Source: Nitrospirota bacterium
GTDB lineage: Bacteria; Nitrospirota; 9FT-COMBO-42-15; HDB-SIOI813
DNA: 34,649 nt
Direction of reading: 5' to 3'
NCBI GenBank assembly: GCA_016234155.1
Contig: JACRGZ010000152.1
Location: forward strand, 1 to 34,649
The position numbers and the translations under genes were made by a program. Shown here in pieces: positions 9,772-32,082 of this stretch (the first letter of the stretch is position 1; the number at the start of each line of letters is the position of its first letter). Under the pieces are notes generated by a model. The model was not told where the DNA came from, ran no database searches, and saw nothing but the letters and a program-made list of their open reading frames with translations.

Positions 9772-11873
9772 CGAAATCGCTCCAGTTCATTTCTGGCAAG
9801 GGAAATAGCCGTCTGATTCCTTCCTTTGGCGGGATCCAGCGTGAGGACCTTTTTGTATAGGTCCCTTGCCTTAACGGATTCCCCTAACTGCTCGTAGAGT
9901 TTCCCCAGTGTAAGGTATCCGAAACCATCCTCAGGCTGGAGGGTCACTGCCTGCTGGAACGTATGGATCGCCTCCCTGGGCCTTCTAATTGTCAGGTACT
10001 CCTTTCCCAGTGCGATGTAGGCATCCGCATAGGAAGGGTTCAGGGATACTACCTTCTCAAATGACCTGATCGCCGGTTCGTGGTCACCCTGTTGTTGATA
10101 AAAAATCCCCATCTGCATCTGAATACCCGGCAGATTCGGATTTCTGCTAAGTGTTCGTGTATAAAGTCCAATAGCCTTCTCCTGATGACCCCCCTGTTGA
10201 TAGATTGTCCCTAAGTTGATCAGTGCAGTTTCGTTGAAGGGATTGAGGCGAGTGGCTGCTTCGAAGGATTGAACAGCCTCTCCTGTCCGGCCATTCTGGC
10301 TATAAAGGAGCCCCATGTTGCTGTAGGCAAGGTCATACTCAGGATTAATGCGGATGGCCTCTTCAAATTGCCGGAGGGCTTCATCCGGCCTATTGGTCTC
10401 GTTGTAGAGGGCACCAAGATCGTTGTGTAAGACAGGGTCCTTGTCTTCAATTTCGAGGGCCCTCAGGTATTCCACCTCTGCCTGATCCAGACGCCCCTGA
10501 CGCTGATAGGCTGATCCCATGCCAAAGTGTGGCCCATAGGAGGACGGCGACTTCCGGATTGCGTCTTGCCAGAGGGTAACTTCACTCCCCCAAACCCTGT
10601 TTCTATCCCATACCCCGATTGAGTATAGGATCAGTATCAATCCGATAACAGATACAAATACCACACGTCTCCGTGTCTGAAGAAGGGACTCTACTATAAG
10701 GACCAATGCCCCAATAATTCCCGCAAAGGCAACAGACGCGATGTATCCCCGGTTTTCCTGAAGCACTGCGGTGAGGGGAATAATGGTCGTGGGAAGCAGG
10801 GTCACATAGAACCATGCGAGAAAAAAACCGATTACCCGAAGGGCACGGTGTCGCGAACGCCAGAACCATAGCATCGCTGCTAGGAGGACTACCAACAGTA
10901 CCAACGCCCCCACAAATGTCAGATCCCGTACAGACTTGACCATTGGTACCGGGTGTTCAATACTGAGGTTGATGGGGGCAATAAGCATCTGCCATGTGGA
11001 TGCCAGTACCTTAACCTGGATCAGGATATTCTCAACCAGTCCCCTCGCCACAGCCACAGGTCCGACCACTCCAACGACCAGCTTCTTGATAATCATATAA
11101 CCAAGAGGAATGGCTATAAACGGGGCGATCACTAAGGCTAAGCTCCTACAATTCCCCTTCCCATTAATCCCCACCCGTGAGGGGAGGGGGTGAGGGGGAG
11201 GGTGGGCTACGGAGATTTTCGTATGAAGAACATACTCATAAAGGATAAGGATAAGGGGTAAGGTAATCAATATCTCTTTGGTCAGCATCCCGAGTCCAAA
11301 CGCTGCCCAGGAGAGATAGACCCACCGTCTGTCCCCTGCGATCTTCGTTATGGGCGCGGGTTCCTGAATGCCCTGTCTATACCGGACATAGGCATAAAAG
11401 GCCAACAGGTAGAAAAAGACGGCCATGACAGATGACCGGGCTGTCACATAGTTCACCACCTCTGAATTAAAGGGATGGAATAACATGACCAGACCGGCGG
11501 CAAGACCGGCATAGAAGGAGGTCAACATCAGGTTCACAATCAGAAACACCAGAAACGCCGTACCCACATGAAAGGCCAGATTCACCAGATGGTATCCTAT
11601 GGGATTCAGACCTCCAAGGGCATAGTTGATCGCAAAGGTGGAGAGTAGTACCGGGCGGTAGTGCAGTGTTTCCACAGGACTCCTCGATCCGGTAGCAATA
11701 TCTGTGAAAAAGGAGGGGATGCCGGTCAGGCTCCTGATCGAGGAGTTTTGCAGAATCTGATGGGCATCATCGTATGTAAAAACACTGTCCAATGCGGTTG
11801 AATACAGGATAAGTCCGGCTATTCCAAATAACAGCAGAATTCTTAAAAACATAGGACGATTATATTGACTCAT
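9768..11873 (-). CDS. GT-C (TMTC/DUF1736-like) membrane glycosyltransferase with a long C-terminal TPR domain, paralog 6 (first gene of the array)
   Basis: 701-aa ORF. Motifs: SVFTYDDAHQI, HYRPVLLSTF, HPFNSEVVNYVTARSSVMAVFFYLL, LTKEILITLPL, LQENRGYIA, followed by about 290 aa of TPRs. The real start may be ATG 11852 (MFLRILLLFGIAG...), because an exact sigma-70 consensus promoter has its -10 box inside codons 3-5 of the long form. One loop carries an extra segment of about 20 aa (VAHPPPHPLPSRVGINGKGN) encoded by a G/C-rich palindromic element. Confidence 0.85.
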   Translation of the reverse strand: MSQYNRPMFLRILLLFGIAGLILYSTALDSVFTYDDAHQILQNSSIRSLTGIPSFFTDIATGSRSPVETLHYRPVLLSTFAINYALGGLNPIGYHLVNLAFHVGTAFLVFLIVNLMLTSFYAGLAAGLVMLFHPFNSEVVNYVTARSSVMAVFFYLLAFYAYVRYRQGIQEPAPITKIAGDRRWVYLSWAAFGLGMLTKEILITLPLILILYEYVLHTKISVAHPPPHPLPSRVGINGKGNCRSLALVIAPFIAIPLGYMIIKKLVVGVVGPVAVARGLVENILIQVKVLASTWQMLIAPINLSIEHPVPMVKSVRDLTFVGALVLLVVLLAAMLWFWRSRHRALRVIGFFLAWFYVTLLPTTIIPLTAVLQENRGYIASVAFAGIIGALVLIVESLLQTRRRVVFVSVIGLILILYSIGVWDRNRVWGSEVTLWQDAIRKSPSSYGPHFGMGSAYQRQGRLDQAEVEYLRALEIEDKDPVLHNDLGALYNETNRPDEALRQFEEAIRINPEYDLAYSNMGLLYSQNGRTGEAVQSFEAATRLNPFNETALINLGTIYQQGGHQEKAIGLYTRTLSRNPNLPGIQMQMGIFYQQQGDHEPAIRSFEKVVSLNPSYADAYIALGKEYLTIRRPREAIHTFQQAVTLQPEDGFGYLTLGKLYEQLGESVKARDLYKKVLTLDPAKGRNQTAISLARNELERFR
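11154..11207. repeat. G/C-rich palindromic element lying in frame inside paralog 6
   Basis: Sequence: ccccttcccattaatccccacccgtgaggggagggggtgagggggagggtgggc. It contains the inverted repeat cccaccc/gggtggg. Its complement carries cccaccctccccctc, which matches 14 of 15 positions of cccaccctgcccctc at 34613-34627. The five paralogs that cover this loop (paralogs 1-5) lack the corresponding peptide segment; the partial seventh gene leaves the window within or just after this loop, so it cannot be compared. Confidence 0.5.
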
Positions 11874-11887
11874 CCTTTCCCTGTCAA
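11859..11887 (-). promoter_or_regulatory. Exact sigma-70 consensus promoter for the TMTC-like array (leaderless geometry)
   Basis: The minus strand reads TTGACA gggaaaggatgagtcaa TATAAT cgtcct ATG. The -35 box is at 11887..11882, the spacer is 17 nt, and the -10 box is at 11864..11859. The A of ATG 11852 is the 7th nt after the -10 box. Confidence 0.6.
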
Positions 11888-11961
11888 GTTAGCCACAGGA
11901 CCAAAATCCACCACCTATTATATACCTGTATATACATGCAGCGTCCCAGACTTGCTCGTCT

Positions 11962-12651
11962 CTACTTTTTTATAAAATTGTATTTAATAACACACCAGAG
12001 GGCACTGACCCCATCCTTCCACCCTATCTTTTTCCCCTCCGCATAATCCCTGCCACTGTAGGATATTCCAACCTCGTAAATCCTGTATTTCCCTTTTGCT
12101 ATCTTGGCGGTAATCTCCGGCTCAAAACCAAAACGGTCCTCTTTAATGTGAATTTGTTTAATAACTTCGGATCGAAAGACCTTGTAACCTGTCTCCATAT
12201 CCGAAAGGTTCAGGTTGGTAGCCATATTAGAAATTAACGTCAGAAGAGAATTGCCAAGGAAGTGCCAGAAGAATAATATACGCCGCTGTTCAGTCGTCAT
12301 AAAGCGGGAGCCGTATACGACATCCGCCTTCCCCTCCAGGATTGGCCTGATCAGTTTATGATATTCCTGTGGATTATATTCAAGATCAGCATCTTGTATA
12401 ATCACAATATCTCCGGTTACATTCCTGAACCCGGTCCTTAATGCCGCCCCTTTCCCCTTATTCTTATCATGGTAGAATACACGAATATTAGGGCCTTTCT
12501 CCATGCTTTTCAGTACATCCCGTGAACCGTCTGTAGAGTAATCGTCTACTATCACTAGTTCCTTATCCAGATCTACTTCCATCACCCTCTGGATAATCTC
12601 TCTGATTGAATTCACTTCATTGTAGACTGGAATGACAATTGAAAGCATCAT
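11962..12651 (-). CDS. GT2-family polyprenyl-phosphate sugar synthase (DPM1/Ppm1/GtrB/ArnC-like)
   Basis: 229-aa ORF. Motifs: MMLSIVIPVYNE, VIVDDYSTDGS, KNKGKGAALRTGF, IIQDADLEYNPQEY (DXD motif), VVYGSRF. No C-terminal TM segments are evident. The start overlaps the upstream stop as ATGA. Confidence 0.8.
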   Translation of the reverse strand: MMLSIVIPVYNEVNSIREIIQRVMEVDLDKELVIVDDYSTDGSRDVLKSMEKGPNIRVFYHDKNKGKGAALRTGFRNVTGDIVIIQDADLEYNPQEYHKLIRPILEGKADVVYGSRFMTTEQRRILFFWHFLGNSLLTLISNMATNLNLSDMETGYKVFRSEVIKQIHIKEDRFGFEPEITAKIAKGKYRIYEVGISYSGRDYAEGKKIGWKDGVSALWCVIKYNFIKK

Positions 12652-14252
12652 GGCTGAATATGCCTATAGTAGATCACAATAGCACCATCTTTGTTGTAAT
12701 AGATATCTCCTTTATAGCCTAATTTCGACTGTATAACTTCATGAATATAGAAAAGCTCACCTGGTATTGCATGCGTCGCTAATAACCAGAACGGTCTTCC
12801 TGCCTCGATGCACGGCTTAATATCTTCAATATATTCGGGGTTATTGCCCCGGTGCATCTTTCCAATAAAGACAGGAGAAGTGATAGACAACGCATTGTAA
12901 TAATGTCGGGAATAATATTCAAATGCAAGATCTCCTCCATAGTAAATATATACCGGTTCATTGTCATTGCGCTTCTCCTCTAAGATAGAAAGCGCTGATC
13001 TCATGTCCTGGACCAGAGGATATTGTTTATACCAGAAATATCCCTTGTTATTTTTATAATACAAACCAGCATCTGCGACTGCCACAGGGATCAGGAACAA
13101 ACCAAGATAGGCAACCGGTCTCAGGAGGGGAATTACCATTGATAACCGCCAGATGGATCTGATGCCGGATATAAACAAAATAATAAAACAAGGGATTGTA
13201 AAAAGGTTGACACGGTTTCCGCCAAATGGATACCTTTGGAGAACAGAGGCAATCAATAGAAGGAAGAAGACAATCCCCCAGTAAGCGACTATTCGAGTCC
13301 TGTTTGACCGGTATAATTCCCATATACCAACAAGGCTTAAAAACATTGCTATTGGCGCATATCCATTCCAGAAATAAACAAAAAAACTCCAACTCCCTGT
13401 TATCAGCCATTTCAAAAAGGGTATGGGTTCTACTAAGTCAGGAAAGGCAGTGCGCCAATAAGATTCTAATCCAGGGGTCACCTGATTTCTGATAACCGTA
13501 AAATATAGTATTAAAAATGAAACCATGATTAAGGAAAACGTTCCGACCCAGTAAAAAACCATCCTGTACTTTTCTCTATCAGGTATATTTATTTTCGAAA
13601 TATTCTTTGCTATATCCCACAATAAAATGGTTCCCACAGAGCACAACACAAAAACAAGAGGATAAGAAAACCACAGGCCAATGGCTCCGGAGATAGCCAG
13701 CATGCCCCATGAAGCAGACCTGTGCCTTTGCTGTATGATATGCTCGGCTATGAGGATTAACAGCAGGCTAAAGAAGATATCCGCAGTATATTGCTTTAGT
13801 TCTTGTGAATATGCCATAAGAACAGGAAGGGCAGCAAAAAGAATCAGCGCCCCTATAGCCTCTGTCTTTCCTAAGAACCGCTTTACACTGTAATAGATTA
13901 AGGCCATCCCCCCTATGCTGAATAGCGCTGGAATGATACGCAAAAACCATTCATTATTCTTGAATAGATGAACGGATAGGTATATGGAGGAGATGAATAG
14001 AGGCGGGACAGGCCACTGCGTAAAGGAGATAGAGGAAAAACTGCCGGATGATGCAAGGTTTGCAACCCATGCCTCGTCTCTCCAGAGAGGCCTTTCACCG
14101 AGATTGTAGAGCCTGATAAACATCCCCACAAGGAAAATTAAGCCAACGAACCATGGTCCTTCAATAAGTGAGTGAAGTCTCTTTTGAGTTATTTTATACA
14201 CTATGAATCTGTTTTTTGGGGCTATAGTAGCCAAAAAGCATTTATACGTCAA
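12648..14252 (-). CDS. Polytopic GT-C membrane glycosyltransferase (PMT_2/ArnT, GT39-like) without TPRs, with a C-terminal soluble domain
   Basis: 534-aa ORF. The first loop reads RLYNLGERPLWRDEAWVANL (W-x-DEA motif after TM1), followed by about 11 hydrophobic segments and then a soluble tail of about 120 aa. The start codon at 14252 is TTG with CAGGAAG about 7 nt upstream, so the exact start is uncertain. The gene is AT-rich. Confidence 0.7.
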   Translation of the reverse strand: MTYKCFLATIAPKNRFIVYKITQKRLHSLIEGPWFVGLIFLVGMFIRLYNLGERPLWRDEAWVANLASSGSFSSISFTQWPVPPLFISSIYLSVHLFKNNEWFLRIIPALFSIGGMALIYYSVKRFLGKTEAIGALILFAALPVLMAYSQELKQYTADIFFSLLLILIAEHIIQQRHRSASWGMLAISGAIGLWFSYPLVFVLCSVGTILLWDIAKNISKINIPDREKYRMVFYWVGTFSLIMVSFLILYFTVIRNQVTPGLESYWRTAFPDLVEPIPFLKWLITGSWSFFVYFWNGYAPIAMFLSLVGIWELYRSNRTRIVAYWGIVFFLLLIASVLQRYPFGGNRVNLFTIPCFIILFISGIRSIWRLSMVIPLLRPVAYLGLFLIPVAVADAGLYYKNNKGYFWYKQYPLVQDMRSALSILEEKRNDNEPVYIYYGGDLAFEYYSRHYYNALSITSPVFIGKMHRGNNPEYIEDIKPCIEAGRPFWLLATHAIPGELFYIHEVIQSKLGYKGDIYYNKDGAIVIYYRHIQP

Positions 14253-14273
14253 CAGAATTCTTCCTGCCCTGCG

Positions 14274-15818
14274 CTATTTATGCGCCGTCTCTAAAATCGC
14301 TAAGTAGGTATCCGTAAGGTCAAATTTCTCAATTATCTTCAGGGCATAATTTTGGTCCAAACGTTGTTCAAATGCCTTCTTATCATCAGAAGTAAAATAG
14401 TAAAAATGAGGAGCGCCGGATGGGTTGTCTTTGCCAAATTTTCTAATCCAGGTCAGATTATCTTTAACGATATAAAAATTCATGCTTGGCTTAAACAACC
14501 AGGTAACCCCTAATCTGATTGTATCAGGCGGGAGGTTGTATTTACTTGTCGTTTCTGCTATTTGCTCTATTACCTTTTTAGTGTTGGCGTCATATTTCCA
14601 ATTATTATAATATCGAAAATTGGCGCTGTTAATAAAATGAAGTATTAATGCGGCTGAAGGAATATAAAAAATCAAAACCATGAACGCCCTAATATATTTT
14701 TTATCAGAGTGAGGTAAAATATTTTTCCACAAGGCTAATACATAAAGGAAAAACATAGGGATAAAAAAGATGGCGGTCCTCTCGATTACATAAAGTGTGT
14801 TAAATAACAGATGCTGCAAAATAATACCTGCCGAACAGATCAGTAACATGAGAGACATCCATAATAAATAATTTCTTAGAAGGTTTGGCAAGTTTTCTTT
14901 CTGAAATGCAAAAAACAAAGTCAACCCGGCTAATACTAACATCATGATAATCCATATTTTTATAAAGAATATGGTGTCCCAATTCCCATATTTCTTACTA
15001 TACAATGTAGCCGAAATCAAACTTGTCACTGTGTCTTGCCAAAAACCGTTCGATCCGCCAAAGTAAAATTCATCGAGCTGTTTCATTAACATAACAGGCC
15101 TGTAATAAATCAAGAATAGCAAAAACATACCTGGGAAAACAAAAAAGGCGGTTTTCAGAATATCCGGTGATTTTTTTTGTAAAATAACCTCACTGATCTC
15201 CAAGAGGACTAACAGACATATTGCTGTTAAATAGACATTTAAAAAGGTTAAATTAGCCAGGGTTGATATTGCCAGCATCGTAGTCGCTAAAAAAGATTCA
15301 TACCTGTCTCTATTGCCCCCTAAGGTATAAATTCTTCTAAAGAGATAATATAATCCAAACATTAAGAAACCTAATCCCAATGCGTAGCCACGGGCTATAG
15401 ATAGATAGTCCAATATAAACGGATTACAGATCATTAATAAGATTCCTGCTACTAAGAGCCATTTATCCAGGAATAATTTTAGTATCTTATAGGTACCTAT
15501 AACGTATAATATACCCCCGATTAATGCGGGAAGCCTGACTGTAAATTCATGCAAACCAAATAATTTAATAAATATCTTAATCAGGAGAGTATTTAAAAGA
15601 TGATTGTTAGACTTATTAAATCTTCCGGCATTGGTAAAGATATCTGAAAAAGGCAGGGTGGCATGAAACAGACAGGTTATGGCTTCATCGTGGGTAATAG
15701 ACAGAGAATATGCCCTCATACCTATATAGAAGATCGCTCCGGCAATAGATAAATACGCCAGGCCTTCATATACATTTATCATTGATTTTCGCAAAGCCAT
15801 AACTTCTCTATCCAGCAT
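14274..15818 (-). CDS. Polytopic GT-C-like membrane glycosyltransferase (PMT_2/ArnT-like) without TPRs
   Basis: 514-aa ORF. It has an early loop motif SLSITHDEAITCLF, many hydrophobic segments and a soluble C-terminal tail. It is strongly AT-rich (a spot count at 14581-14640 gives 30% GC). Confidence 0.6.
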   Translation of the reverse strand: MLDREVMALRKSMINVYEGLAYLSIAGAIFYIGMRAYSLSITHDEAITCLFHATLPFSDIFTNAGRFNKSNNHLLNTLLIKIFIKLFGLHEFTVRLPALIGGILYVIGTYKILKLFLDKWLLVAGILLMICNPFILDYLSIARGYALGLGFLMFGLYYLFRRIYTLGGNRDRYESFLATTMLAISTLANLTFLNVYLTAICLLVLLEISEVILQKKSPDILKTAFFVFPGMFLLFLIYYRPVMLMKQLDEFYFGGSNGFWQDTVTSLISATLYSKKYGNWDTIFFIKIWIIMMLVLAGLTLFFAFQKENLPNLLRNYLLWMSLMLLICSAGIILQHLLFNTLYVIERTAIFFIPMFFLYVLALWKNILPHSDKKYIRAFMVLIFYIPSAALILHFINSANFRYYNNWKYDANTKKVIEQIAETTSKYNLPPDTIRLGVTWLFKPSMNFYIVKDNLTWIRKFGKDNPSGAPHFYYFTSDDKKAFEQRLDQNYALKIIEKFDLTDTYLAILETAHK

Positions 15819-15872
15819 GACTGAACAAATGATAATAAATCACACACGTTAGGGAATATATATGCTCCTCCA

Positions 15873-18722
15873 TCAAAAGGCGACACTATAGTAGATGGAT
15901 AGAGTACTATTATTGTAATCCCCCCCTACGATCGGGATCGGAGATGCAAGGATATCTGTCAGGTCCTGTAGTTCCTTGGAGGACACGTGGATATTGGTCG
16001 AGCTGGTTACATAGGAGTAGGATAGACCGCAATTTACCTGATCAGACAGCGGATAGCTTAGCCCCCCTGACAGACCATACTGAACAGTCTTCCGGAACCG
16101 TTGAAATAGTGTTACAGAGTCTGGATTGGAATAGACGTAATAGGTCCCATTGGCCCCTAAATTGCCTGACAGGTCTTTTGTGATCTGCCGGCTATAATTT
16201 ATAGACATACCATTTGACCGGTATGCAAAGTTACTGGCCATAGGGTCCAGATTCATACTGCTTGAGAAGCTATATGAGAGGCTCATCGAATCCCGTGGTG
16301 ACAATTGTTGAGAGCCTGTGACAGACATGCTGTGACGATTGGTATCACTGATTTTCGTGCGAAAGGACCGGGCACCTGTAAAGGAATACTGCAGGTTTAG
16401 ACGTGAGGGGATTCCTCTCCCCACCATAGATGCAGAGATGGAGGCGTTATTGGTCGTTGAAGTAGTTACCTTATTAAAAAACCCGTAGCTCTTGTTCAGA
16501 CTGCCCCCTATGACCCACTCTTCCCACACTCGGTACTGACCTGAAAGAGAGCCTGCAAGACTGTTTCCTAATCCCTGACTCTGATAGTAGACACTCTGAG
16601 ACCCAGTCCCACCTGCTGAAAAACGCATCTGTTTGTTCCGGATGAGAATATAGCTGAACCCGGCATTCAGGGAAGATGAGTACCCTGTCACAGGCTTGGT
16701 ACCTTTCGAGATGTTGTTATCCATAGTCTGATTATAACTCACAGAGTAGGAGATATCCCGCAGCCGTCTAAGTTCAACGGCCGACAAATCCCCTTCACGG
16801 GTACCTTTTCCAACCTGCACGATCAGTTCGTACTGTTCCTTGGCCTCTTCAAACCTCCCCTCATCCATATAGACCCGGGCTAACTGAAACCTTGTCTGGG
16901 TAGACTTGGGTTGGAGCTCCAATGCCTTTTTAAATGCGTCAATGGCCTCCAAAGGTTTTTTGAGGCCAATATAATCCATGCCCCTGAAAAGGTAGGTCAC
17001 ATGATTGGATGGGTTCAGCACGCTCAAGATATCGGTCTCTTTCAGACTCTCCTCGAATTTCCCCTTATCATACAACTCACGGGCGGTGCGGGTATGTTCA
17101 TACAATTTGGCAACATTATCCAGGCCCTTTAACCTGGCTTGGGTCTGCCCCATCATCTTTTCATCAGGTTTCAGTGACAGGACATTTTCATATTCGGCCC
17201 TCGCCTCATCAAACCGAGCATGGTTCTCCATTACCAGGCCCAGTTGCATATGGGCATTGGCATAATCCGGTCTCAACTCAATGGCCTTTTTAATAGAGGC
17301 TATGGCATCCTCTGTTTTATTCATGCGGTCGTATATGATCCCCTGGCTCATATAGGCTGAGGCATCCTCCGGGAAGAGGGCGATCACCTCCTTGATCTCA
17401 CTTAGGGCCGCCTCAAATTCACCCTTTTTGATCTGCACATTCACCTCCCGGAAGTGGAGATCCGATTCTATCGTCTGGAGGTGTTTCGTGGCTGTTCCTC
17501 CCTCTGTCGTCTCTTTTCCCAGGGAGAGCACATGATTCAACTCAACGCGTGCCTCTTCTAACTGTCCCACCTGCTCCAGTAATAGACCTAACTGGAGATG
17601 GGCTTGAATAGATTTGGGGTTATTCTCCACGGCCCGCCGCAACGTATCCAGTGCCTTATCCCTTTGACCTGCCTTGCTATAAAGGACTGCCATAAGGAGG
17701 TAGGGCTGCACCTGCTTCGGCCGTAACCGGATGGATTCTTCCAGAGACTGTTGCGTCGCCTCTATATTCCCCTCCTCCATGGAAGTCCTGGCCTCTTCGA
17801 TCACGGCCTTACGTACCTTGGCTGACTCGACGACCTCCAGCCACCCCCTGGCAATACCGACATTCTTATCTTCCGGGGTCCCGCTTCCGATCGGTTTTCC
17901 CCTTTCAATAACATCTTTAAAGAGTCCAATGGCCTCATCTGTCTGACCTTTCCGCTGATACAGGATACCTAATTCGACCTTGGCGGAGATGGACTCGGGA
18001 TTCAGTTCTACCGCCAGCTTCATATCCTTAATAGCCTCCTCAAACCTTTGTTGCGTATCCTCCACATTTCCCCGTAAGTGATAGGCCATCGCGTTTTTGG
18101 GGTCTAAGGCCAATATGGCCTCGACACCCTTAAGGGCCTGGTCGTTTTCTGCCTTTCCAATATGCGTTTGTACTTGTTGGAGTAGCTCCTGGATACGGAT
18201 CTGGCGCTTTACCCCCTCCAGGCGGACGGCTGCTAACCGGGACTCAGCGCCTCCCTTTTGTAAGGCAATGACCTTTTCATAGAATTGTCCGGCCTTTGCC
18301 CAATCTTTCTGGTTTTCATAAAATTGGCCCAGCCGCAGATTGGCCTGCAGGTTATCGGGGTTGATCTCCACGGTCTTTTGATAGGACTTGAGCGCCTGGT
18401 CTCGTTGTTTCAAGAGGGTATACATCTCCCCCATGCCAAAGTATGCATCCTCATTCTTTGGGTCTAAACGCACCACCACCTCAAGTTCGGTCACTGCCTC
18501 TTCTATCTTTTTAGTCCTGGCCAGTTCCATGGCCCTGGATAGATGCGTCTGGATCTCCTGTTGAAGTGTGGGAGCATCCTGGGCGTGGACTGTGGATGGG
18601 ACAAAAAACAGATAGAGATAAAAAAAAAGTAAGGAAAAGAAAAAAACACGAATGGAAAGGGGCCCGAAGAGAGCCAGCGGATAGTTTCTCGGTTTCATGA
18701 TCCGATCTATTATATCTGACAT
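15873..18722 (-). CDS. Outer-membrane protein: long periplasmic TPR domain plus C-terminal beta-barrel (BcsC/PgaA/PelB-like export porin architecture)
   Basis: 949-aa ORF. The signal peptide ends ...FVPSTVHA/QDAP. About 600 aa of TPR repeats follow, then about 290 aa of alternating Ser/Gly/Tyr-rich strands ending ...STLSIYYSVAF with a terminal Phe. The likely true start is ATG 18698 (MKPRNYPLALFG...), downstream of an exact consensus promoter. Confidence 0.75.
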   Translation of the reverse strand: MSDIIDRIMKPRNYPLALFGPLSIRVFFFSLLFFYLYLFFVPSTVHAQDAPTLQQEIQTHLSRAMELARTKKIEEAVTELEVVVRLDPKNEDAYFGMGEMYTLLKQRDQALKSYQKTVEINPDNLQANLRLGQFYENQKDWAKAGQFYEKVIALQKGGAESRLAAVRLEGVKRQIRIQELLQQVQTHIGKAENDQALKGVEAILALDPKNAMAYHLRGNVEDTQQRFEEAIKDMKLAVELNPESISAKVELGILYQRKGQTDEAIGLFKDVIERGKPIGSGTPEDKNVGIARGWLEVVESAKVRKAVIEEARTSMEEGNIEATQQSLEESIRLRPKQVQPYLLMAVLYSKAGQRDKALDTLRRAVENNPKSIQAHLQLGLLLEQVGQLEEARVELNHVLSLGKETTEGGTATKHLQTIESDLHFREVNVQIKKGEFEAALSEIKEVIALFPEDASAYMSQGIIYDRMNKTEDAIASIKKAIELRPDYANAHMQLGLVMENHARFDEARAEYENVLSLKPDEKMMGQTQARLKGLDNVAKLYEHTRTARELYDKGKFEESLKETDILSVLNPSNHVTYLFRGMDYIGLKKPLEAIDAFKKALELQPKSTQTRFQLARVYMDEGRFEEAKEQYELIVQVGKGTREGDLSAVELRRLRDISYSVSYNQTMDNNISKGTKPVTGYSSSLNAGFSYILIRNKQMRFSAGGTGSQSVYYQSQGLGNSLAGSLSGQYRVWEEWVIGGSLNKSYGFFNKVTTSTTNNASISASMVGRGIPSRLNLQYSFTGARSFRTKISDTNRHSMSVTGSQQLSPRDSMSLSYSFSSSMNLDPMASNFAYRSNGMSINYSRQITKDLSGNLGANGTYYVYSNPDSVTLFQRFRKTVQYGLSGGLSYPLSDQVNCGLSYSYVTSSTNIHVSSKELQDLTDILASPIPIVGGDYNNSTLSIYYSVAF

Positions 18723-18736
18723 TTACCTGGTGTCAA
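18709..18736 (-). promoter_or_regulatory. Exact sigma-70 consensus promoter in front of the TPR/beta-barrel gene
   Basis: The minus strand reads TTGACA ccaggtaaatgtcaga TATAAT agatcggatc ATG. The -35 box is at 18736..18731, the spacer is 16 nt, and the -10 box is at 18714..18709. ATG 18698 lies 10 nt after the -10 box. The track start at 18722 sits inside the spacer. Confidence 0.55.
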
Positions 18737-18808: not shown

Positions 18809-18850
18809 AAAAAAAAGGGGAGAGGTCCAGGTTCCCCTGGACTTCTCCCC
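18809..18850 (-). terminator. Rho-independent terminator of the 304-aa secreted-protein gene
   Basis: The minus-strand RNA reads GGGGAGAAGUCCAGG GGAA CCUGGACCUCUCCCC UUUUUUUU. This is a 15-bp stem (one G-U pair), a 4-nt loop and a U8 tract, 38 nt after the stop at 18888-18890. Confidence 0.8.
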
Positions 18851-18887: not shown

Positions 18888-19802
18888 TTACGGATCGTGG
18901 GCGCCTGTTACACTGTTGCCGTTATACGTAGAAGCTGAGACAGTCCCATGACCGCCAAACTCGTTGTGATTACACACTATACCAAGACTTCCACAAGTTT
19001 GGTTCAGCTCGCCGACCTGCATCCATGTGCCTAAGTAGACAACAACTTCTCCAGGGGCTACGCCACTGGCTGTAAGACCGAGAGAGGATGATCCGCTCTC
19101 CTCAGACAGGAATGCCTCCATGGTCTGATCAATTGCACGAATCCAAGGATCGCCAGCCGCACCTAATGGTGTACCTACTACATCGGCACCTGACCATGCA
19201 ACATCAACAGCCTGATGCAACCTCTGCCAAATGCCAAAGGAACCACCGCCTGCAGTCATGTCAGCAAGGTCCTGATCCAAGGTCTGGTCAACATAGGAAA
19301 AATCTTGATTTCCAGTAACCCCTTTGTTGAGCACGAACAATGAATCCAGGTATTGAGCGATACCCTGCTCATTTGCAGCCTTGGCTACAGTACCCTCAGT
19401 CACTTTCTGAAAGAGATCCGAGATGATCAAGGTGGCCTCCTGCTCTTCCAACTGTGCAGCAGTAGAACTGGTTGGACAATGACTGTAGGAAGCCGCGAGA
19501 GGACTACCTGTCGCCTCGTCCATAATCGGAGGACATGTTACGATACCATAGGGCTCATTCGCGTATGGGACATAGATCGTCCCAGGACCGTAATTAGGGT
19601 TCTCATCAGCCGCTAGTCCCCATTTGTTCGCTGGCATTGGATCACCATGTGCAGTAGTAATAAACATAGTAGCACCGAATGCTGAATGGTCTGCCTGATC
19701 TATCATAACATCAGACTTGTCATATCCTGCAAAAGCCGGAGCTGCTGTAAGTGCCAGCATCCCCATACCTAATGCTAAGAAGAAAAATTTATTTTTTCTC
19801 AT
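18888..19802 (-). CDS. Secreted protein of unknown function (304 aa), monocistronic
   Basis: Track ORF 18888..19928. I place the start at ATG 19802 (MRKNKFFFLALGMGMLALTAAPAFA/GYDK, a clear signal peptide) because AAGGAGGTG lies 8 nt upstream. I recognised no domain. The protein is acidic and Gly/Thr/Ala-rich, with 4 Cys. Confidence 0.75.
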   Translation of the reverse strand: MRKNKFFFLALGMGMLALTAAPAFAGYDKSDVMIDQADHSAFGATMFITTAHGDPMPANKWGLAADENPNYGPGTIYVPYANEPYGIVTCPPIMDEATGSPLAASYSHCPTSSTAAQLEEQEATLIISDLFQKVTEGTVAKAANEQGIAQYLDSLFVLNKGVTGNQDFSYVDQTLDQDLADMTAGGGSFGIWQRLHQAVDVAWSGADVVGTPLGAAGDPWIRAIDQTMEAFLSEESGSSSLGLTASGVAPGEVVVYLGTWMQVGELNQTCGSLGIVCNHNEFGGHGTVSASTYNGNSVTGAHDP

Positions 19803-20327: not shown

Positions 20328-23300
20328 ATGCGTATTATGTCAGATATCAAGAAACTGTTTCTGGTCCTTTTAATCAGTAGTCTCATATATTGTCTCATAC
20401 TCGGTGGGTTCGGGACCCTTTACGCAGCCAATTTCCAGTGGATACAAACCGACTGGTCCGGAGGTGCGTCACCTTCCAGCACCACAGGCCATAATCCAGC
20501 TCAGAATGGGCAGACAAGCTGGAACCAATATTATAGCAAGGACCCGAACATAGAGGCATTATCCACAAATGGTCAACTCACACTCTCTCCCCTCTCCGCC
20601 TCCTGGATACAGGATACGGACACTGATTTTAACTCAGGGACACTAACCAGCCTCCAAATAATGGGGACGGGGAGTGCTGCCTATCTTACGTTGAACGATT
20701 ATGTACCGGCCCTTGGCACCGGCGCCGATGGAGACCTGATCGTAGACGGTACAACAGCATCCAGTAGCTCAGACCTCCAGGTGCATGGTGCAGGGAATCC
20801 TCTTATAATAAATGGTATCAAAAATTACAACAAGGTATTTGTCCAGAATGGGGGCGTCATCAGTGGTAGTCCGGCAAGTCTCCTCTCCCCCCCTGCTTCT
20901 ATAAATTTCAACTCTCTCTATGGATACACAGCTCCGCCCGGGGACAACTACTATATCGTAACCACCGTGGACCAGTTTGGCAATGAAACCCAACGAAGCC
21001 CGTTGACTGATAACCCTTATGGAAACAGGATCATCGGACTCAGGGGGTGGGCACCCTATATTACATGGAGTCCGGTAGCCGGCGCTGCAGGATACCGGGT
21101 CTACCGGCGGACCGAATATGTTTCTACGGACTATAGCTCCCCTGCCTTAGTCTGTTCCATTACAAATCCCGCAACTACATCTTGTCTGGATACCCTGCCG
21201 GCTCCTCAACCGGGGTCCCCTCATTTAAAACTGACGCCCGCCCTTGCAACTCCTGGCGTCTCCCCCACCGGCGGCAATTTAACGGACGGCACCTACTATT
21301 ATGTGGCCACTGCCATTGATTTCTGGGGATTTGAGACGAACCCCGGGACCCAGAGGACAGTAACGATTTCTACGGGGACAAATACCGCATCTGTTAGCCT
21401 TTCATGGTCGGCCATTAGTGAGGCATCCGGTTACCGGGTTTATCGTTCGTCCACCAGCGGCATATACAATATTAACGACCCTAATTCCGGGATGGTCTGT
21501 CAGACCACCTCATTGAGTTGTACTGATACACTGTCTACCCCTATACCTGGCGCCCCTTCCATGAGTTATGATAATGCAGCGGCCAATGGCATGCTCCAGC
21601 TTAAAATAATTGGAACCCTTTCAGTGGATTCAACGTCTTCGATTAATCTTGATGGGATGGGATTCTCAGGAGGGGTAAATACAACAACCAGCACCCAGGG
21701 CGTGCCGGGAAAGGGCCCCGGGGCAGCGGGCAACAGGGGCGGGGGTGGCGGCTACGGGTCAGCAGGGACATCAAACAGCAATCCATTATTCCCATCGGCA
21801 ACCGGAATACCTTATGGCAGTACAGTTTCAGTTGCCCAGTCTCCTTATCCCGGTTCTGGCGGTGCCTCCGGCAGTTTCAGCAGTCTTATTTATCAGGGTG
21901 GAACCGGAGGAAACGGCGGCGGGACAGTCCGGATCTCTGCTAATGACATTTCACTCGCCGGCACCATTTCAGCGAAAGGAAGCCCCGGACAGAATGCAAA
22001 CCAGAATTTGACGGACCCGGGAGGCGCCGGCTCAGGGGGACTTGTATTTTTAGACAGCAATATACTGAACAGTACGGGACAGATCACTGCCATAGGCGGC
22101 AGCGGGGGTGTCTTCATCCCGTCTTCTGGTAAAAACCCCAGTAACTATGCAACAGCAGGCTCCGGTGGAAACGGGCGTATCCGGTTGTCTGCATTATCCG
22201 CTATCCCTGGTACTACCAATCCTGCGGCCTTCGTGGGAAATGCCGGGCTATATGAGAGTCCATCCCAGGATCTGGGGGCCGGCGGTGTCAGATTCACCAA
22301 CCACAACATCTCATGGACAGGACAACTCAACGGGGGGAACATTAAGTTCCTAATAGCCACTAACAAGGATAATCAGACATGGATATTCTGTGGACCTGGC
22401 GGGGTTATGGAAAGTTCAGTAAGCCCCGCCTATTACACACCCGACCCTTTCTCTGTGGGAACCCCCATATGGGACGGTCACAACGGTGACAGATATATCA
22501 GATACAAGATAATCTTTGAGGCACCTGATATTGACCCGTTAAATAGTCCTGTGCTGGATAACGTCACCATAGGTTACGAATACAACCCTTTCTTCCAGTC
22601 TTTGGTATCATCTCCTTATGATACCGGAAACACGGCCAATCCAATAAGGGCGTTAACATGGGATGCTAACCTTGCACCCGGGACAGATGCCTCCCTCCAA
22701 TTGAGGACAGGAGGAAGTTCTGCAGGTGTACTTGCGACAGACTGGTATGGCCCAATTAATAGTGCACTTGCAAACTCCGGCGTCATTGTAGCCAACCCTG
22801 GCTTCGAGTCCTGTACCGGAAGCTATACTATTCCACCCGGTTGGACTGCATCAACAGTTCCTATTGACGACGGATGCTACAATTCGGGATATACCGGGAG
22901 TTGGTCTCTCAGTGAAAGACGCACTCAAGACTATTTCTCCCAGTCCTTACAGCTCTCATCCGGAGTAACTTATACCTTTGGTGTCTGGGCCAGATCAGCC
23001 CAGGCAGCTCAACAGACTGCCATACTATTGGTCTCCAGTACCGCAGGTGGAGGATCAACCTATTGTACTAACCAGACGAATAGTACTTCATGGACTCTGT
23101 TAAGCTGTCAGTATACACCCTCTACCAACCAGACCATTTACTTAAATCTCAGGTCTACTGGTACCAAAGGATACTATGCATGGTTTGACGATGTCAGTGT
23201 TAGTGTACTTAGCACAAGCGGCCTCAGCACTATTGCTGTTCAGGATGTAAGTGGATTCTCTGTTGGAGACTGGGTAACTATAACTGAGAGTACGAACCCA

Positions 23301-26300
23301 TCACAGGTTGAGCTCAAAAAGATTTCTGCGATTGATACCGCCACCAACCGGATTACTCTAAATTCCCCGCTTTTATACGGATATACCACAGATTCTGTAG
23401 TAACCAATACCTTCACTGACCCTCAGGGAACAAAGCCTGTTAATATTTTAAACCGGGATGGGGTCAACGACCAGTGGCTCCAATACAGGGTCCTACTAAC
23501 AGCAGAAGACCGGCTTCAGACCCCTGTCTTCCTTGAAAATCGTATAGGTTACCTGCCGGCCGCCGGTATCTATCAACCCGATGGTGTGATTGATTCAAAT
23601 GGGGATTGTTTACTTACTTTTGATGAATGCCGGCTTAATGGAAGCCTTGGAACCTTTGGATCCGGAGGGGGCGGTATATCAAATAGAAGTGTAGACCCGG
23701 GCTTTAAAAATGGCCTGGCCACTTATACAGTACAGATACAGAACGACGGTAATCCGGCCAGTGGTATGGATTCTATCTCAATCAACTGGAATACCCCATC
23801 GGATGCCTCAGGGGCATGGACAGTAGTCCTGAATGATATAAGTCAGAATCTTTCATCGCCGGTAACCGTCACCTTAGATCCCGGCAGCAGCCAGACTTAT
23901 ACCCTGGAGGTGACACCTTCGATATATGCCCCGGCAGACTCTGTTAAGACAGTCACACTGGACATCCACTCACAAAACGAATATGTAAAAGGGGATTCTA
24001 TACAGGCAGTAACCACCATCAACCGTGCCTATCAGACTGATGGAATTATAGAAACAAATGGAAATGACACGCGGGACACCACCGGTAACGGGAATGGAGG
24101 ATCAGCCTCTAAGACCTCTATGCCGGCAGATACAATGACGTATACGATAACAATTGAAAATGAGGGGAACATACAGGATGTCTACATATTATCCCAAACA
24201 TCTTCCTGCACAGATAGTAATAACCTCGCTCAACCCCTTCCCCCGAACTGGAAGATCCTGATTAATGACGGGACAACAGATTATGACCTTGTCTCTGCAA
24301 CCTGGACCACGACCGCTGTCCCGGCAAAGATCAATGCAGGCTCCGTAGTTCAGTACACCCTCAAGGTATTTACCTCAGGGGAACCCATGACCTGCACTAC
24401 CATCTTAAAGATAGACTCTATTGGAACCGGCACAACGCAGGATTCCCTAACTGCAACGACCGTCCTCAGCAACGCCTACGGTGTAGACCTGTGGATTGAA
24501 GGAACAAACGGGGATAATCTCTATGACGCTACAGGAACCGGCGGTGGAGGCAACTATTCTAAAGGGATTTTGGGGGGAGTTGCCGGAACATTCGATATAA
24601 AAGTACAGAACGAGGGAAATGGCCCTGATTCATTTATACTCGAATGGAGTTTTGACCCACCTATCCCACCCGACTGGTCCATAACCATCCTGAACCAGGA
24701 TGGGTCCACACTTTGTGCTTCTCCCTCATCATGCATTGTTCCTCCTTCAGACCTTGCCTGTATCTATAAATCAGGGTCTCAGTGCTTAGCTATCGCCGGC
24801 GAGGTTATTCCTTTAAGGTTACAGGTTTCACCCCCCTCCTCTTTCACATCAGGGTATCAGGATATTATCATAAAGGGAACATCCATGGGAGATACTTCAA
24901 AAGTGGATTCTATTCGGGCCAGGGTATGGGCTAATTCATTGACTATCACTGTGGCCTCAGTAACACCTACTTCTTCTACAATAACCTGGCCTGCCCCTCC
25001 ATGGCCAGCAGATAGTTATGACCTGAGATACTCAAGGGGAGACATTAACAGTGCAAAGGAGATTATAGAAGACGGGTTAATACCTGTACCCAATCAGGTC
25101 AATTTCTCTAATGCGACCGCTGTGAGAGGACTCCCAAAACCCAAAACATCCGGAACCGAGTCCTTTACTGTCACACAGCTTTATGCCAACACCAACTACT
25201 ACTTTGCCTTAAAAACAAGGCAAAACGGGGGCAATACATCAGTCATATCAAGCTGTAGCAATTGCCCGCGTAAAACAGATAGCTCCTCAGATTTAACACC
25301 GCCTTCAGCCGTCAGTGACCTGGTGGTTACTTCCGGCACAGCAGATTCAGAAACACTCTGCTGGACTGCACCCTATGACGACAACCCCAGTACCCCTGTT
25401 ACAGGATATGTCCTGAAATATTCTACCAAAAAGATTGTGGATGGTATCACACCTGGCATGGGGGAGGTACTGTTCAGTAATGCGACTACTATAGATGACC
25501 TCGGGATACCCAAGTCCCCGGGGACCCAAGAATGCTACAAAGTAAAGGTAAACAACATCATATCGCAAAATGATCGTACCCCTAATACACAGTTCTTTTT
25601 TGCCCTGAAGTCAGGAGACGAAAATCAAGCCGGTAACGATGGCATCCTCAATACCCAGGACGATAACCTCTCCTCCATATCCAATGTAGCCCAGGGACTG
25701 ACGGCGATGTCTTCAAACGCCTATAATATGGTTTCAGTTCCCAAGGTCCCAAACCCTAATTCCCCAGCGGATGTCTTTGGGGATGATGTGGGCTCACCCC
25801 TCTATCTCTATTGGTGGGATTCCCGGGGGGTCGGTCACGACCAGGGATGCTATGATGGCCTGCCGAATCAGTTTAATCCCAATAATGTGAACCCGCCCTG
25901 TACACAGATCACTGCAATACAGGAAGGCAAAGGGTACTTTCTCTGGTCTCCCCGACAGGATGTTGTCCTCGATGCCCCGGTTGGCTCATCTGAGGTTACT
26001 CCAGCTTCCTGTACTAATGAACTCAATCAGAGTTTTAACTGTTATGTTTACACCCTTAAGGAAGGGTGGAATACGATAGGTAATCCATTTGGAAAAGAGG
26101 TGGATGTCAGCGCTGTAAGGATCAGGGAAACAAAACAGCAGGAATTGACTACCACTATTACTACGGCACCATTCCTGCAAGCAGTTAACAATAACTGGAT
26201 AGGGAATGCAATCTATTCTTATAACGGGACAGCCTATTCGTACGACATTTGTGATAATACAGGCTGTAATCCTGTGTTGCAGTCATGGAAGAGTTACTGG

Positions 26301-28529: not shown

Positions 28530-29278
28530 ATATGAATAAAAAAGACAGGACCAAAATCACTATCATTAACACCCTTCTTCTAATAATGACTATGACCTTC
28601 CGGGCATACCCGGTTTGGGCTGACACATCACAGATCATCCTGGAAGTTTCAGTCCCGTTAGAGGATACCACCGGCGCCGGTATCACTAAGGCATATAATC
28701 GCCTTGTCCTCGGAGTCCACCCTGAGGCTACAGGGAATTACGACCCTCAATGGGACACCCCTGCCTTTTTCAGCACACCAGACCCTGAAAATCCGCCTCT
28801 TTTGAGGGCATATTTTGAACATCCTGAATATGCATCAAACCAGAAAGAGTTATGGCGGGATATTCGATCCGATACCGGTGGCTCACAGAAAACATGGGAT
28901 ATGGCAGTTGTCTTAGCCCCCTCGGAGATTGGGAAGGCGATCACTCTATCGTGGGCTCTCTCTCCCTCCCTGCTGACATCTAAAGATAAGATAACCCTAC
29001 TGGATCAGAATTCTCAATCCAGCATAGACATGCGAAGACAGTCCTCCTACAGTTTTGTCAATGGCTCGTCATCTCCAAAAATGTTATCGGTGACTATCAA
29101 CTCATCAAAGGGTTCTTCCAGTAGTGGATCGGGTAACTTTGGATGCGGTACAGTAAAGCGGGACGACTTCAATAAACCGGGCACTGGAACTACGATACCG
29201 ATACTGATAAATTTATTAATTCTGTTAAGCCCTGTTCTGCTTCGTCTTAGGCCATTACGATCAAATTCAACAAACTAA
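28526..29278 (+). CDS. Small exported protein (250 aa) with an N-terminal module shared with the 696-aa protein and a C-terminal Gly-Cys / TM / Arg-rich tail
   Basis: The start overlaps the upstream stop as ATGA. The signal peptide ends ...AYPVWA/DTS. Module matches with the 696-aa protein: LGVHPEATGNYDPQWDTPAFF vs AGIRTGASDKYDNAMDTVSFL; LRAYFEH vs LQAHFPH; ELWRDIRS vs SLWRDFRA; KTWDMAVV vs VTWDFEVV; ITLSWAL vs ISLNWQI; KITLLD vs ELTLVD. The tail reads SSSSGSGNFGCG...IPILINLLILLSPVLLRLRPLRSNSTN. Confidence 0.75.
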   Translation: MNMNKKDRTKITIINTLLLIMTMTFRAYPVWADTSQIILEVSVPLEDTTGAGITKAYNRLVLGVHPEATGNYDPQWDTPAFFSTPDPENPPLLRAYFEHPEYASNQKELWRDIRSDTGGSQKTWDMAVVLAPSEIGKAITLSWALSPSLLTSKDKITLLDQNSQSSIDMRRQSSYSFVNGSSSPKMLSVTINSSKGSSSSGSGNFGCGTVKRDDFNKPGTGTTIPILINLLILLSPVLLRLRPLRSNSTN

Positions 29279-29281
29279 GAC

Positions 29282-29311
29282 TTGACAGGGGAGAGAGCAA
29301 CAAATTATAAT
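29282..29311 (+). promoter_or_regulatory. Exact sigma-70 consensus promoter in front of the multiheme cytochrome gene
   Basis: Sequence TTGACA (29282-29287), 18-nt spacer ggggagagagcaacaaat, TATAAT (29306-29311). It starts 4 nt after the stop of the 250-aa gene. ATG 29327 lies 15 nt after the -10 box, so the leader would be only about 8-9 nt and has no SD. Confidence 0.55.
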
Positions 29312-29326
29312 ATCCTGAATTTTTCC

Positions 29327-32080: not shown

Positions 32081-32082
32081 CC

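Follow-up and report, generated by a model that had tools for sequence, protein, structure and literature searches.

Whether an outer-membrane protein gene and the glycosyltransferase genes that follow it form one functional module, or owe their adjacency to an insertion, is the question raised by the 34,649-nt contig JACRGZ010000152.1, a complete contig (hereafter the window) of a metagenome-assembled genome labelled 'Nitrospirae bacterium'. On its minus strand, the order of transcription runs from w346 (encoding a secreted protein) and a terminator to four open reading frames (ORFs) of 949, 514, 534 and 229 amino acids (aa), and from there into an array of TMTC-like genes. The first of the four encodes a tetratricopeptide repeat (TPR) protein with a C-terminal beta-barrel, the second and third encode TPR-less polytopic glycosyltransferases of the GT-C fold, and the fourth encodes a family 2 glycosyltransferase (GT2). 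A preliminary description of this DNA had read the four genes as one unit, in which a single lipid-linked sugar donor would feed up to nine periplasmic transferases and the barrel would serve as a dedicated outer-membrane conduit. The layout and lengths of the four ORFs were confirmed, as was the presence of nine GT-C genes on one strand (six complete TMTC-like genes, a seventh truncated at 3–737, and two of the PMT_2 type). Comparison with related loci (designated L001 and onwards) instead favors two layers, with a probability of roughly 0.6: an older barrel-array locus, and an inserted GT2/GT-C cassette that supplies a donor synthase and two transferases.

The barrel gene and the array are conserved without the intervening cassette

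The L001 locus encodes a barrel protein that is 47% identical to that of the window and carries orthologs of w346, w379 and the giant protein w2013, and it therefore represents the same locus. Its array genes start 54 nt after the barrel gene, the array of L002 likewise follows directly after the barrel, and tblastn searches of both loci revealed no homologs of the 514-, 534- and 229-aa proteins. A metagenome scan with the conserved C-terminus of the barrel yielded ten further loci, and a TMTC-like gene was found next downstream of the barrel gene in L040–L047 and upstream of it in L048. The barrel gene is thus followed directly by a TMTC-like TPR-GT-C gene, without the cassette, in 10 related loci (L001, L002 and L040–L047), and a GT2 or PMT_2 cassette was seen at the barrel locus in none of 12 related loci. 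The recurrent gene order is MMPL, w379, w346-like, barrel, one or more TPR-GT-C genes and a giant protein, with giant secreted proteins being adjacent in the window, L001, L009, L047 and L048. Among the loci compared, the window is the only one with three genes between barrel and array. The genes of the proposed module are therefore not syntenic in relatives, and the comparison shows that the conserved unit is the TPR-barrel gene plus the array rather than the four-gene run.

The three intervening genes also stand apart in composition, with GC contents of 0.35 (the 514-aa gene, the most AT-rich in the window), 0.41 and 0.42 against 0.47–0.51 for every neighbour, and with a GC content at third codon positions (GC3) of 0.39–0.48 against 0.52–0.57 for the flanking barrel and array genes. 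The edges of this GC shift are sharp and lie at about 11.9 kb and 15.8 kb. Part of the cassette was moreover recovered in an unrelated setting: from position 14266 to 11957, the window is 93% nucleotide-identical to contig L054, with the identity stopping at both borders and the flanks of L054 being unrelated. The 534-aa GT-C gene, the GT2 gene and ~50 nt of upstream sequence therefore make up one block that is portable, whereas the 514-aa gene forms a piece of its own. We conclude that the GT2 gene and the two GT-C genes constitute an AT-rich, strain-specific insertion of ~3.9 kb between barrel and array. A 31-nt 'repeat' at 12664 and 15886 was considered as a border mark and rejected, since at 71% identity it looks like chance.

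The inserted genes encode a putative donor synthase and two PMT_2-type proteins

The 229-aa protein matches the Pfam family Glycos_transf_2 (E 1.4e-35) and indeed carries the VIVDD...QDADLEY signature of DPM1, Ppm1 and GtrB that had been pointed out before. It has no transmembrane segment as judged from hydrophobicity, lacks interface helices and comprises the catalytic domain only. Its best match among solved structures is the dolichol-phosphate mannose synthase of P. furiosus (PfDPMS; 3.7e-20, residues 1–208 against PfDPMS residues 23–231), with GtrB also among the best matches. Residues 3–207 align with three ArnC sequences (~1e-16), and the DAD motif aligned with the DADLQ of polyprenyl-phosphate synthases. 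With processive or soluble GT2s, the alignment was limited to the first ~90–145 residues of the 229-aa protein. The top NCBIfam matches were AglJ, ArnC, PpgS, PgfS and a Dol-P-hexose transferase. All of them scored below cutoff (bits against equivalog cutoff: AglJ 127/325, ArnC 75/529, PpgS 73/370, Dol-P-hexose transferase 56/375), so that the protein is like the polyprenyl-phosphate sugar synthases and outside the named equivalogs. These alignments support a grouping of the GT2 with polyprenyl-phosphate sugar synthases, and not with the processive, cytoplasmic polysaccharide GT2s. In being a catalytic domain only, it is closer to human DPM1 and the catalytic domain of mycobacterial Ppm1 than to GtrB, ArnC or PfDPMS.

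An exact-sequence look-up of the GT2 gave no match, and orthologs of 47–76% identity were found at 31 genome loci from many phyla. The neighbours of these orthologs were classified by hydrophobicity counts, supplemented with Pfam searches on selected proteins, specific hidden Markov models (HMMs) having missed most GT-C neighbours. Classifiable large polytopic neighbours were PMT_2 proteins (L006 and L012, the latter carrying TPRs), a weak PMT_2 match (L020), YfhO (L017) and TMTC-like proteins (L009). A GT2 gene was found paired with a GT-C gene in the window, L054, L039, L009, L006–L008, L012, L017 and L020, and this pairing recurs across phyla. In L009, from an uncultured member of the Nitrospiraceae (CAZTAM010000007.1), the GT2 gene (73% identical) lies between TMTC-like genes, and these genes directly follow orthologs of w696, w250, the multihaem cytochrome w932 (59% identical) and w267. 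Positions 11–13138 of L009 correspond to 26439–32886 of the window, and the orthologs in this part include He_PIG and FGE-sulfatase-like proteins. L009 therefore represents the same neighbourhood as the other flank of the window, and from its gene order the block of cytochrome and giant-protein genes and the glycosyltransferases travel together. In L039, a GT2 gene (76% identical), a methyltransferase gene, a homolog of the 534-aa protein (56% identical) and a TMTC-like gene all lie within about 10 kb. Because GT2 orthologs occur beside GT-C genes, including inside a TMTC-like array, the earlier proposal of one donor feeding several periplasmic transferases is a reasonable one; the comparison supports a GT2 that would supply its donor to both GT-C types, with a position that varies between loci.

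The methyltransferase, a 201-aa class I enzyme, adjoins homologs of the 534-aa GT-C protein at L039 (5383–5988) and L037 (11623–12228); in L039 it sits between the GT2 and the GT-C gene, and it is absent from the cassette of the window. The closest GT2 orthologs from named genomes (71–73% identical) are those of L006–L008 (Nitrospirae RBG_16_43_11 and relatives), where the GT2 gene is preceded by a gene for a small DUF2304 protein with three transmembrane segments and followed by genes for a ~890-aa polytopic protein (PMT_2 in L006) and a second GT2. The DUF2304 protein could be the missing flippase-type partner, and no DUF2304 gene is present in the window.

As to the two TPR-less proteins, the W-x-DEA and HDEA motifs that had been ascribed to them were both recovered in the first loop after the first transmembrane segment, with WRDEA beginning at residue 57 in the 534-aa and HDEA at residue 43 in the 514-aa protein, and both proteins are polytopic, with 9 and 8 or more hydrophobic segments in the two. 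The 534-aa protein matches PMT_2 with 46.0 bits (cutoff 26.1), and the 514-aa protein stays under that cutoff with 22.1 bits. Alignment of the latter to the 534-aa family with hhalign (probability 96.3%, E 1.8e-9, 304 columns) nevertheless placed its HDEA on the DE pair (D59-E60) that is invariant in the 534-aa family profile of 27 homologs. Single-sequence searches of solved structures with either protein returned nothing useful, and the only solved match of the 534-aa family profile was ArnT (5ezm; E 6.5e-5, positions 64–380). From these profile comparisons, both are assigned to the GT-C enzymes of the PMT_2/ArnT kind, the 514-aa protein being a putative distant relative.

The likeness to ArnC and ArnT raises the possibility that the GT2 and PMT_2 genes form a lipid-modification unit, acting on lipid A, the lipopolysaccharide core or another envelope glycolipid, that adjoins the array by accident and does not feed the TMTC-like enzymes. 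The full-length alignment of the GT2 with ArnC and the ArnT match of the 534-aa family fit such a role, as do the self-contained nature of the block in which the pair moves, which brings along a promoter-like site, and the location of the L037 homolog of the 534-aa gene among housekeeping genes without TMTC-like neighbours. We nonetheless consider it unlikely, given that GT2 orthologs lie between TMTC-like genes in L009 and near one in L039, that a PMT_2 protein with TPRs neighbours the GT2 in L012, that the ArnC/ArnT matches are far under the equivalog cutoffs, and that the window contains no genes for the biosynthesis of 4-amino-4-deoxy-L-arabinose (Ara4N).

The array proteins are predicted to be TMTC-like GT-C enzymes

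The array consists of six complete paralogs of 583–701 aa and a seventh that is cut. In 14 sequences of the array family, D28 D29 (in the first loop), R66 P67 (within HYRP) and K192 E193...T197 are invariant or nearly so, and DD, (SHKS)YRP and KE..T are the M1, M2 and M4 signatures of human TMTC1-4 (PMC7801869). Pfam revealed C-terminal TPRs in the array proteins, no match to DUF1736, and a PMT_2 match in one of the 14 family members (E 0.015). The array profile had no match among solved structures, and its comparison with the PMT_2-type family by hhalign reached a probability of only 5%. Because these sequence searches gave no link, the fold was settled instead by structure prediction and the published motifs. 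An AlphaFold2 model of the membrane domain, built from the seven paralogs of the window, had a predicted template-modelling score (pTM) of 0.78 and a predicted local distance difference test score (pLDDT) of 71, and the top 17 Foldseek matches of this model were all GT-C proteins (STT3, Pmt4, AglB, DPY19, ArnT, PglB and Pmt1/2), after which the probability fell to ≤0.2. Motifs and model together support the prediction that the array proteins are TMTC-like GT-C enzymes.

With TMTC1-4 (family GT105), the array proteins share a predicted GT-C domain with DD, (H)YRP and KE..T followed by C-terminal TPRs, and the array adjoins genes for giant immunoglobulin-like (Ig-like) and fn3 proteins, recalling the cadherin substrates of the TMTCs. 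In contrast to TMTC1-4, they are bacterial, lack a DUF1736 match in Pfam and occur as seven tandem paralogs. Between the mechanical ORFs of the fifth and the sixth paralog there is an overlap of 110 nt (2490–2599, minus strand), and going by the paralog alignment, translation of the 620-aa array ORF probably begins further downstream, near MGIKIRILLLF.

The barrel belongs to a family of its own

The outer-membrane protein had been described as a TPR protein with a barrel the size of 16 strands and a terminal Phe. The TPRs, the barrel and the Phe were all recovered, but the 16 strands were not. The signal peptide is cleaved after VHA at residue 47 (949-aa numbering), and AlphaFold2 modelling of the last 353 residues together with six homologs (pLDDT 82, pTM 0.67) predicted four TPR helices followed by 14 beta strands. 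The sole low-confidence stretch of this model is the loop before the last strand, which is too short to hold two extra strands, and the model thus predicts a barrel of 14 strands and not 16. Barrels of 14 strands occur in OmpG, FadL and CymA, and those of BcsC, PgaA and PelB have 16.

Pfam and NCBIfam searches with the barrel domain returned nothing meaningful, and the NCBIfam models of BcsC and PgaA matched the TPR part only (BcsC 46 bits, cutoff 858; PgaA 52 bits, cutoff 367). Foldseek retrieved generic outer-membrane barrels at template-modelling scores of 0.3–0.45, with OmpG, FadL and CymA ranking equal to the PgaA barrel (4y25) and PelBC (9h80), and a barrel class can therefore not be assigned from these matches. 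A profile of the barrel family gave a marginal BamA match only when compared with solved structures. A search with the full-length 949-aa protein was swamped by TPR proteins (4 matches covered the barrel) and a word-indexed search with the barrel gave one fragment, and the family was collected with an index-free profile search, which yielded 126 representatives below 1e-30. The full barrel domain is present in 85 of the best 150 profile matches, nearly always at the extreme C-terminus, and in full-length members it is preceded by a TPR region of ~440–1400 aa. The domain is marked by a conserved NPDS motif, a conserved ILASPIPxVGGDY loop (the low-confidence stretch of the model) and a terminal Phe, which is the last residue in 68 of 76 members. 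When 41 family barrels were compared with Pfam, weak matches were obtained to Porin_4 (6), OMP_b-brl (6), Omp85 (4) and SlipAM (4). The barrel represents a real, unnamed family of predicted outer-membrane barrels for which neither Pfam nor NCBIfam has a model.

With BcsC, PgaA and PelB, the protein of the window shares a signal peptide, long periplasmic TPRs, a C-terminal outer-membrane barrel and a terminal aromatic residue. It differs from them in its predicted 14 strands and the lack of a family match, in the lack of a nearby synthase or cyclic di-GMP receptor gene in the loci examined, and in the conserved neighbours of the barrel gene, which are w379-like, DUF1302, MMPL and TMTC-like genes. 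As in the preliminary description, the window showed no synthase, Wzx/Wzy or ABC exporter, and neither did the related loci examined; this check covered the window, the Pfam gene tables of L001–L005 and L050–L053, and tested families only in L040–L048. The analogy that underlay the dedicated conduit breaks down on three counts: the number of strands, the family to which the barrel belongs, and the lack of a synthase in the related loci examined.

Partners of the barrel gene other than glycosyltransferases were also conserved. A w346-like gene lies directly upstream of it in the window, L001, L043, L044, L045 and L047, and the ORFs at this position in L002 and L040 had no significant match to w346. 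Homologs of w346 have conserved DQTLDQDxAD and DQWV motifs and conserved Cys residues, all but one of them end in ...DP, and Pfam has no model for the family. The w346-like protein could be a partner or a cargo of the barrel. The w379 family (~300 aa, with a signal peptide and no Pfam model) is represented directly upstream of the barrel gene by proteins of 303–314 aa in L005, L050 and L052 (HMM E 7e-6, 1e-11 and 1e-20), which are distant barrel subfamilies with no GT-C gene nearby. L003 has a w379-like gene nearby and an MMPL exporter 54% identical to the fragment in the window, and the w379/MMPL pair is also found in the context of the barrel gene in L040, L044 and L047. In L003 and L052, the barrel gene has a DUF1302 gene as a neighbour, and in L053 the ORF that follows the barrel gene is DUF1302-like by eye, with no Pfam match on record.

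A cluster of DUF1302, DUF1329, a BNR protein and a COG1033 RND exporter has been proposed to export an envelope component (Price et al., bioRxiv 10.1101/072470). The barrel loci have in common with it DUF1302 and an MMPL/COG1033-type exporter, which repeatedly neighbour the TPR-barrel gene (L003, L052, the DUF1302-like ORF of L053 and the MMPL fragment of the window). They differ from it in that no DUF1329 or BNR protein was seen at the TPR-barrel loci, and TPR-barrel and w379-like proteins are not among the parts of the described cluster. This neighbourhood suggests that the barrel is part of an envelope export or assembly context that would predate, and be independent of, the glycosylation genes.

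Slam/DUF560 proteins are likewise described as periplasmic TPRs with a 14-strand barrel (PMC5449769, PMC8406197). By this likeness, the TPR-barrel protein might be a Slam-like (type XI) translocon that displays w346-like or glycosylated giant proteins. A conserved secreted-protein gene lies directly upstream of the barrel gene at no fewer than six loci, as Slam cargo genes do, giant secreted proteins neighbour the barrel in the window, L001, L047 and L048, and SlipAM matches were obtained with the barrels of a few distant members, in one case exceeding the cutoff of 22 bits, with 24.5. The barrel of the window itself, however, has no SlipAM (PF04575) match even at E ≤ 1, and w346 is not a lipoprotein. 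The distant subfamilies have w379-like and DUF1302 neighbours instead of w346-like genes, and Slam is a proteobacterial system rather than one of Nitrospirae. The TPR region of Slam is also about three times shorter. Membership of Slam, suggested by the first weak SlipAM matches, was rejected because the unrelated barrel families Porin_4, OMP_b-brl and Omp85 were matched at least equally often among the 41 members, pointing to a generic outer-membrane protein signal, and a Slam-like role seems doubtful.

A broader and equally tentative proposal is that the TPR-barrel protein and its w379- and w346-like partners might be an undescribed family of outer-membrane translocons, coupled in this lineage of Nitrospirota to tandem TMTC-like protein O-glycosyltransferases that would glycosylate giant Ig-like/fn3 surface proteins and assist in their display. 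If true, bacteria would possess in this locus a counterpart to the O-mannosylation of cadherins in eukaryotes, complete with an export step, and the GT2 cassette would supply or diversify the lipid-linked sugar.

A possible route for the donor sugar

The cassette most resembles the known pairs of a polyprenyl-phosphate sugar synthase and a GT-C protein, such as ArnC/ArnT, GtrB/Gtr, Ppm1/Pmt, CsbB/YfhO and the archaeal Agl22 or AglJ/Agl23, in that its DAD-motif GT2 is translationally coupled to a polytopic PMT_2/ArnT-like protein with a first-loop DE motif. Compared with these pairs, the GT2 of the window is set apart by its 229 aa with a catalytic domain only, no transmembrane segment, scores below the equivalog cutoffs and no gene for a GtrA-type flippase. 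The cassette is an ordinary periplasmic glycosylation unit, and the unusual part is its host locus.

From knowledge of the families, the peripheral GT2 would load polyprenyl phosphate, at the cytoplasmic face, with a single sugar taken from a nucleotide sugar, and the lipid-linked sugar would then be flipped. The GT-C enzymes, with a first-loop DE in the PMT_2 type and DD in the TMTC type, would transfer the sugar to periplasmic acceptors. For the TPR-bearing enzymes, these acceptors would most likely be proteins, probably the neighbouring giant fn3/Ig-like (He_PIG) secreted proteins. Through the insertion, a locus that already existed would have gained a donor synthase on site and two further transferases, and the barrel would serve in an apparatus for envelope export or assembly, not as a conduit dedicated to the cassette.

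Several points weigh against this two-layer explanation. No integrase or mobile-element genes, repeats, tRNA genes or RNA families were found at the borders of the cassette, and L001 and the other related loci are fragments of genomes that may hold a GT2 elsewhere. Amino-acid usage in polytopic proteins could account for part of the low GC content, although GC3 is lower too and the membrane domains of the array are not AT-rich. The 14-strand count comes from a single AlphaFold2 model built from six sequences, and the function proposed for the barrel is read from its neighbourhood. Finally, the ArnC/ArnT-like matches are also compatible with a lipid as acceptor instead of a protein.

No gene for a GtrA-type flippase was found in the cassette, and one of the PMT_2-like proteins might have an Agl23-like role, so that the cassette would encode a synthase, a flippase and one transferase. 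In H. hispanica, Agl23 is a putative hexose-P-dolichol flippase that translocates a lipid-linked oligosaccharide in liposomes (PMC11182771). In NCBIfam, the 534-aa protein is matched best by TIGR03663 ('flippase activity-associated protein Agl23'; E 3.4e-13), and the GT2 by the archaeal AglJ. The TIGR03663 match nevertheless reaches only 49 bits against a cutoff of 126 and is confined to the N-terminal 150 residues, a part common to PMT_2 proteins. PMT-type transferases have the invariant DE pair as their catalytic signature, and the 514-aa protein has no Agl23 match, which makes a flippase among the two quite improbable.

Least probable of all is that the four genes form one co-evolved module, whose GT2 would make the donor and whose GT-C enzymes would build a glycoprotein or polymer in the periplasm, with the barrel as its dedicated exporter of the BcsC/PgaA/PelB type: they do adjoin on one strand behind a strong promoter, at distances of 54, 21 and −4 nt (the last being a 4-nt overlap between the end of the 534-aa gene and the GT2 start) and with no convincing internal terminator found within the run, and the TPR-plus-barrel architecture is real, with PgaA and PelBC among the Foldseek matches, but the barrel adjoins the array without the cassette in relatives, the cassette is compositionally foreign and partly portable, and the predicted 14 strands come with generic Foldseek matches and no BCSC_C or PgaA-barrel match.

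In the literature, we found no paper on a bacterial locus of TPR-barrel, tandem TMTC-like and giant Ig-like genes. Within this lineage, a TPR-barrel family that lacks Pfam and NCBIfam models is tightly linked with tandem bacterial enzymes of the TMTC-like kind and with giant Ig-like proteins. Should the giant proteins be glycosylated by the TMTC-like enzymes, the locus would offer an accessible prokaryotic model for a poorly characterised eukaryotic O-mannosylation family. The portable GT2/GT-C block shows how such loci acquire a new donor supply. For annotation, the locus is a warning that adjacency is not equal to a module, the 'dedicated conduit' having arisen from an insertion junction.

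Transcription signals and start codons

Perfect TTGACA-N16–18-TATAAT sites occur three times in the window (Table 1), against 0.03 expected and with three sites reached in 0 of 100 shuffles, and they are therefore not a matter of chance. The exact consensus promoter reported earlier for the TPR-barrel gene is one of them, and it led to a corrected start for this gene. Its −10 hexamer (18714–18709) lies downstream of the first ATG, and the expected transcription start near 18702 is ~4 nt before the ATG at 18698. Translation must therefore start at the latter ATG, yielding 941 aa, in agreement with the NCBI record of the protein (P0001; 941 aa, 'tetratricopeptide repeat protein'). Upstream, the strong intrinsic terminator of w346 separates w346 from the TPR-barrel transcription unit, and L001 has an equivalent hairpin and T-run at the matching position.

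The second exact promoter lies at the downstream junction of the insertion, and its −10 hexamer ends 6 nt before the ATG at 11852, the codon for Met8 in the first array ORF. As read from its sequence, this promoter would give the array its own transcription start, and no such promoter is present in the 54-nt gap between barrel and array in L001. A promoter-like TTGACG-17-TACTAT also precedes the 534-aa gene (14252–14224, minus strand) and is carried on contig L054 as well; this site leaves the reading of the four genes as one unit unsupported. The mechanical TTG start of the 534-aa ORF coincides with the −35 hexamer, so that the likely start is the GTG at 14201, yielding 517 aa (as in P0268).

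Each exact promoter overlaps an ORF at its mechanically called 5′ end (for the TPR-barrel gene, the first gene of the array and the 932-aa cytochrome gene), and the likely start codons lie ~6–15 nt past the −10 hexamer in all three cases. These short distances suggest leaderless or near-leaderless mRNAs.

Gene map of the window

The coordinates of the genes, domains and signals discussed above are compiled in Table 1, together with the w346-like or equivalent ORFs of related loci.

Table 1. Features of the window, and w346-like or equivalent ORFs in related loci
Feature	Position	Strand	Basis or remark
949-aa ORF (TPR-barrel protein)	15873–18722	-	ORF call
Gene for the 941-aa outer-membrane protein	15873–18698	-	Signal peptide, TPRs, C-terminal barrel
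Periplasmic TPR region, ~residues 48–655 (~600 aa)	16758–18581	-	TPR_1, TPR_2, TPR_8, others, E to 1e-58
C-terminal beta-barrel domain (predicted), residues 657–949	15876–16754	-	AlphaFold2, family alignment
514-aa ORF (GT-C)	14274–15818	-	ORF call
534-aa ORF (PMT_2-type GT-C)	12648–14252	-	ORF call
229-aa ORF (GT2)	11962–12651	-	ORF call
Portable block: 534-aa GT-C, GT2 and ~50 nt upstream with TTGACG-17-TACTAT	11957–14266	-	L054 match
Array of seven TMTC-like TPR-GT-C paralogs (predicted), last cut by contig end	3–11873	-	ORFs, motifs, fold
Exact sigma-70 consensus TTGACA-N16-TATAAT	18709–18736	-	Overlaps first ATG (18722) of 949-aa ORF
Second exact sigma-70 consensus promoter, between GT2 and array	11859–11887	-	
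Third exact sigma-70 consensus site, at 932-aa multihaem cytochrome gene	29282–29311	+	
Intrinsic terminator of upstream w346 gene	18821–18838	-	
w346, secreted protein of unnamed family	18888–19802	-	Likely start ATG 19802 behind AAAGGAGG
w2013, 2013-aa fn3/CBM giant protein	20328–26369	+	
w696, 696-aa He_PIG/fn3 protein	26439–28529	+	
w379 (signal peptide) and MMPL exporter fragment, conserved pair	32890–34029 and 34001–34558	-	
w346-like/equivalent ORF, L001	9098–9913		
w346-like/equivalent ORF, L002	1–879		
w346-like/equivalent ORF, L040	5947–7119		
w346-like/equivalent ORF, L043	1684–2988		
w346-like ORF, L044	2160–3530		
w346-like ORF, L045	2–700		
w346-like ORF, L047	2818–4197		

The two giant or large secreted proteins encoded on the plus strand, w2013 and w696, have an apparently homologous C-terminal region of ~200–350 aa. 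In tblastn searches, both matched the same region of L009, and w696 also matched the giant-protein ORFs of L001 and L048. This shared region could be a common sorting or anchoring domain.

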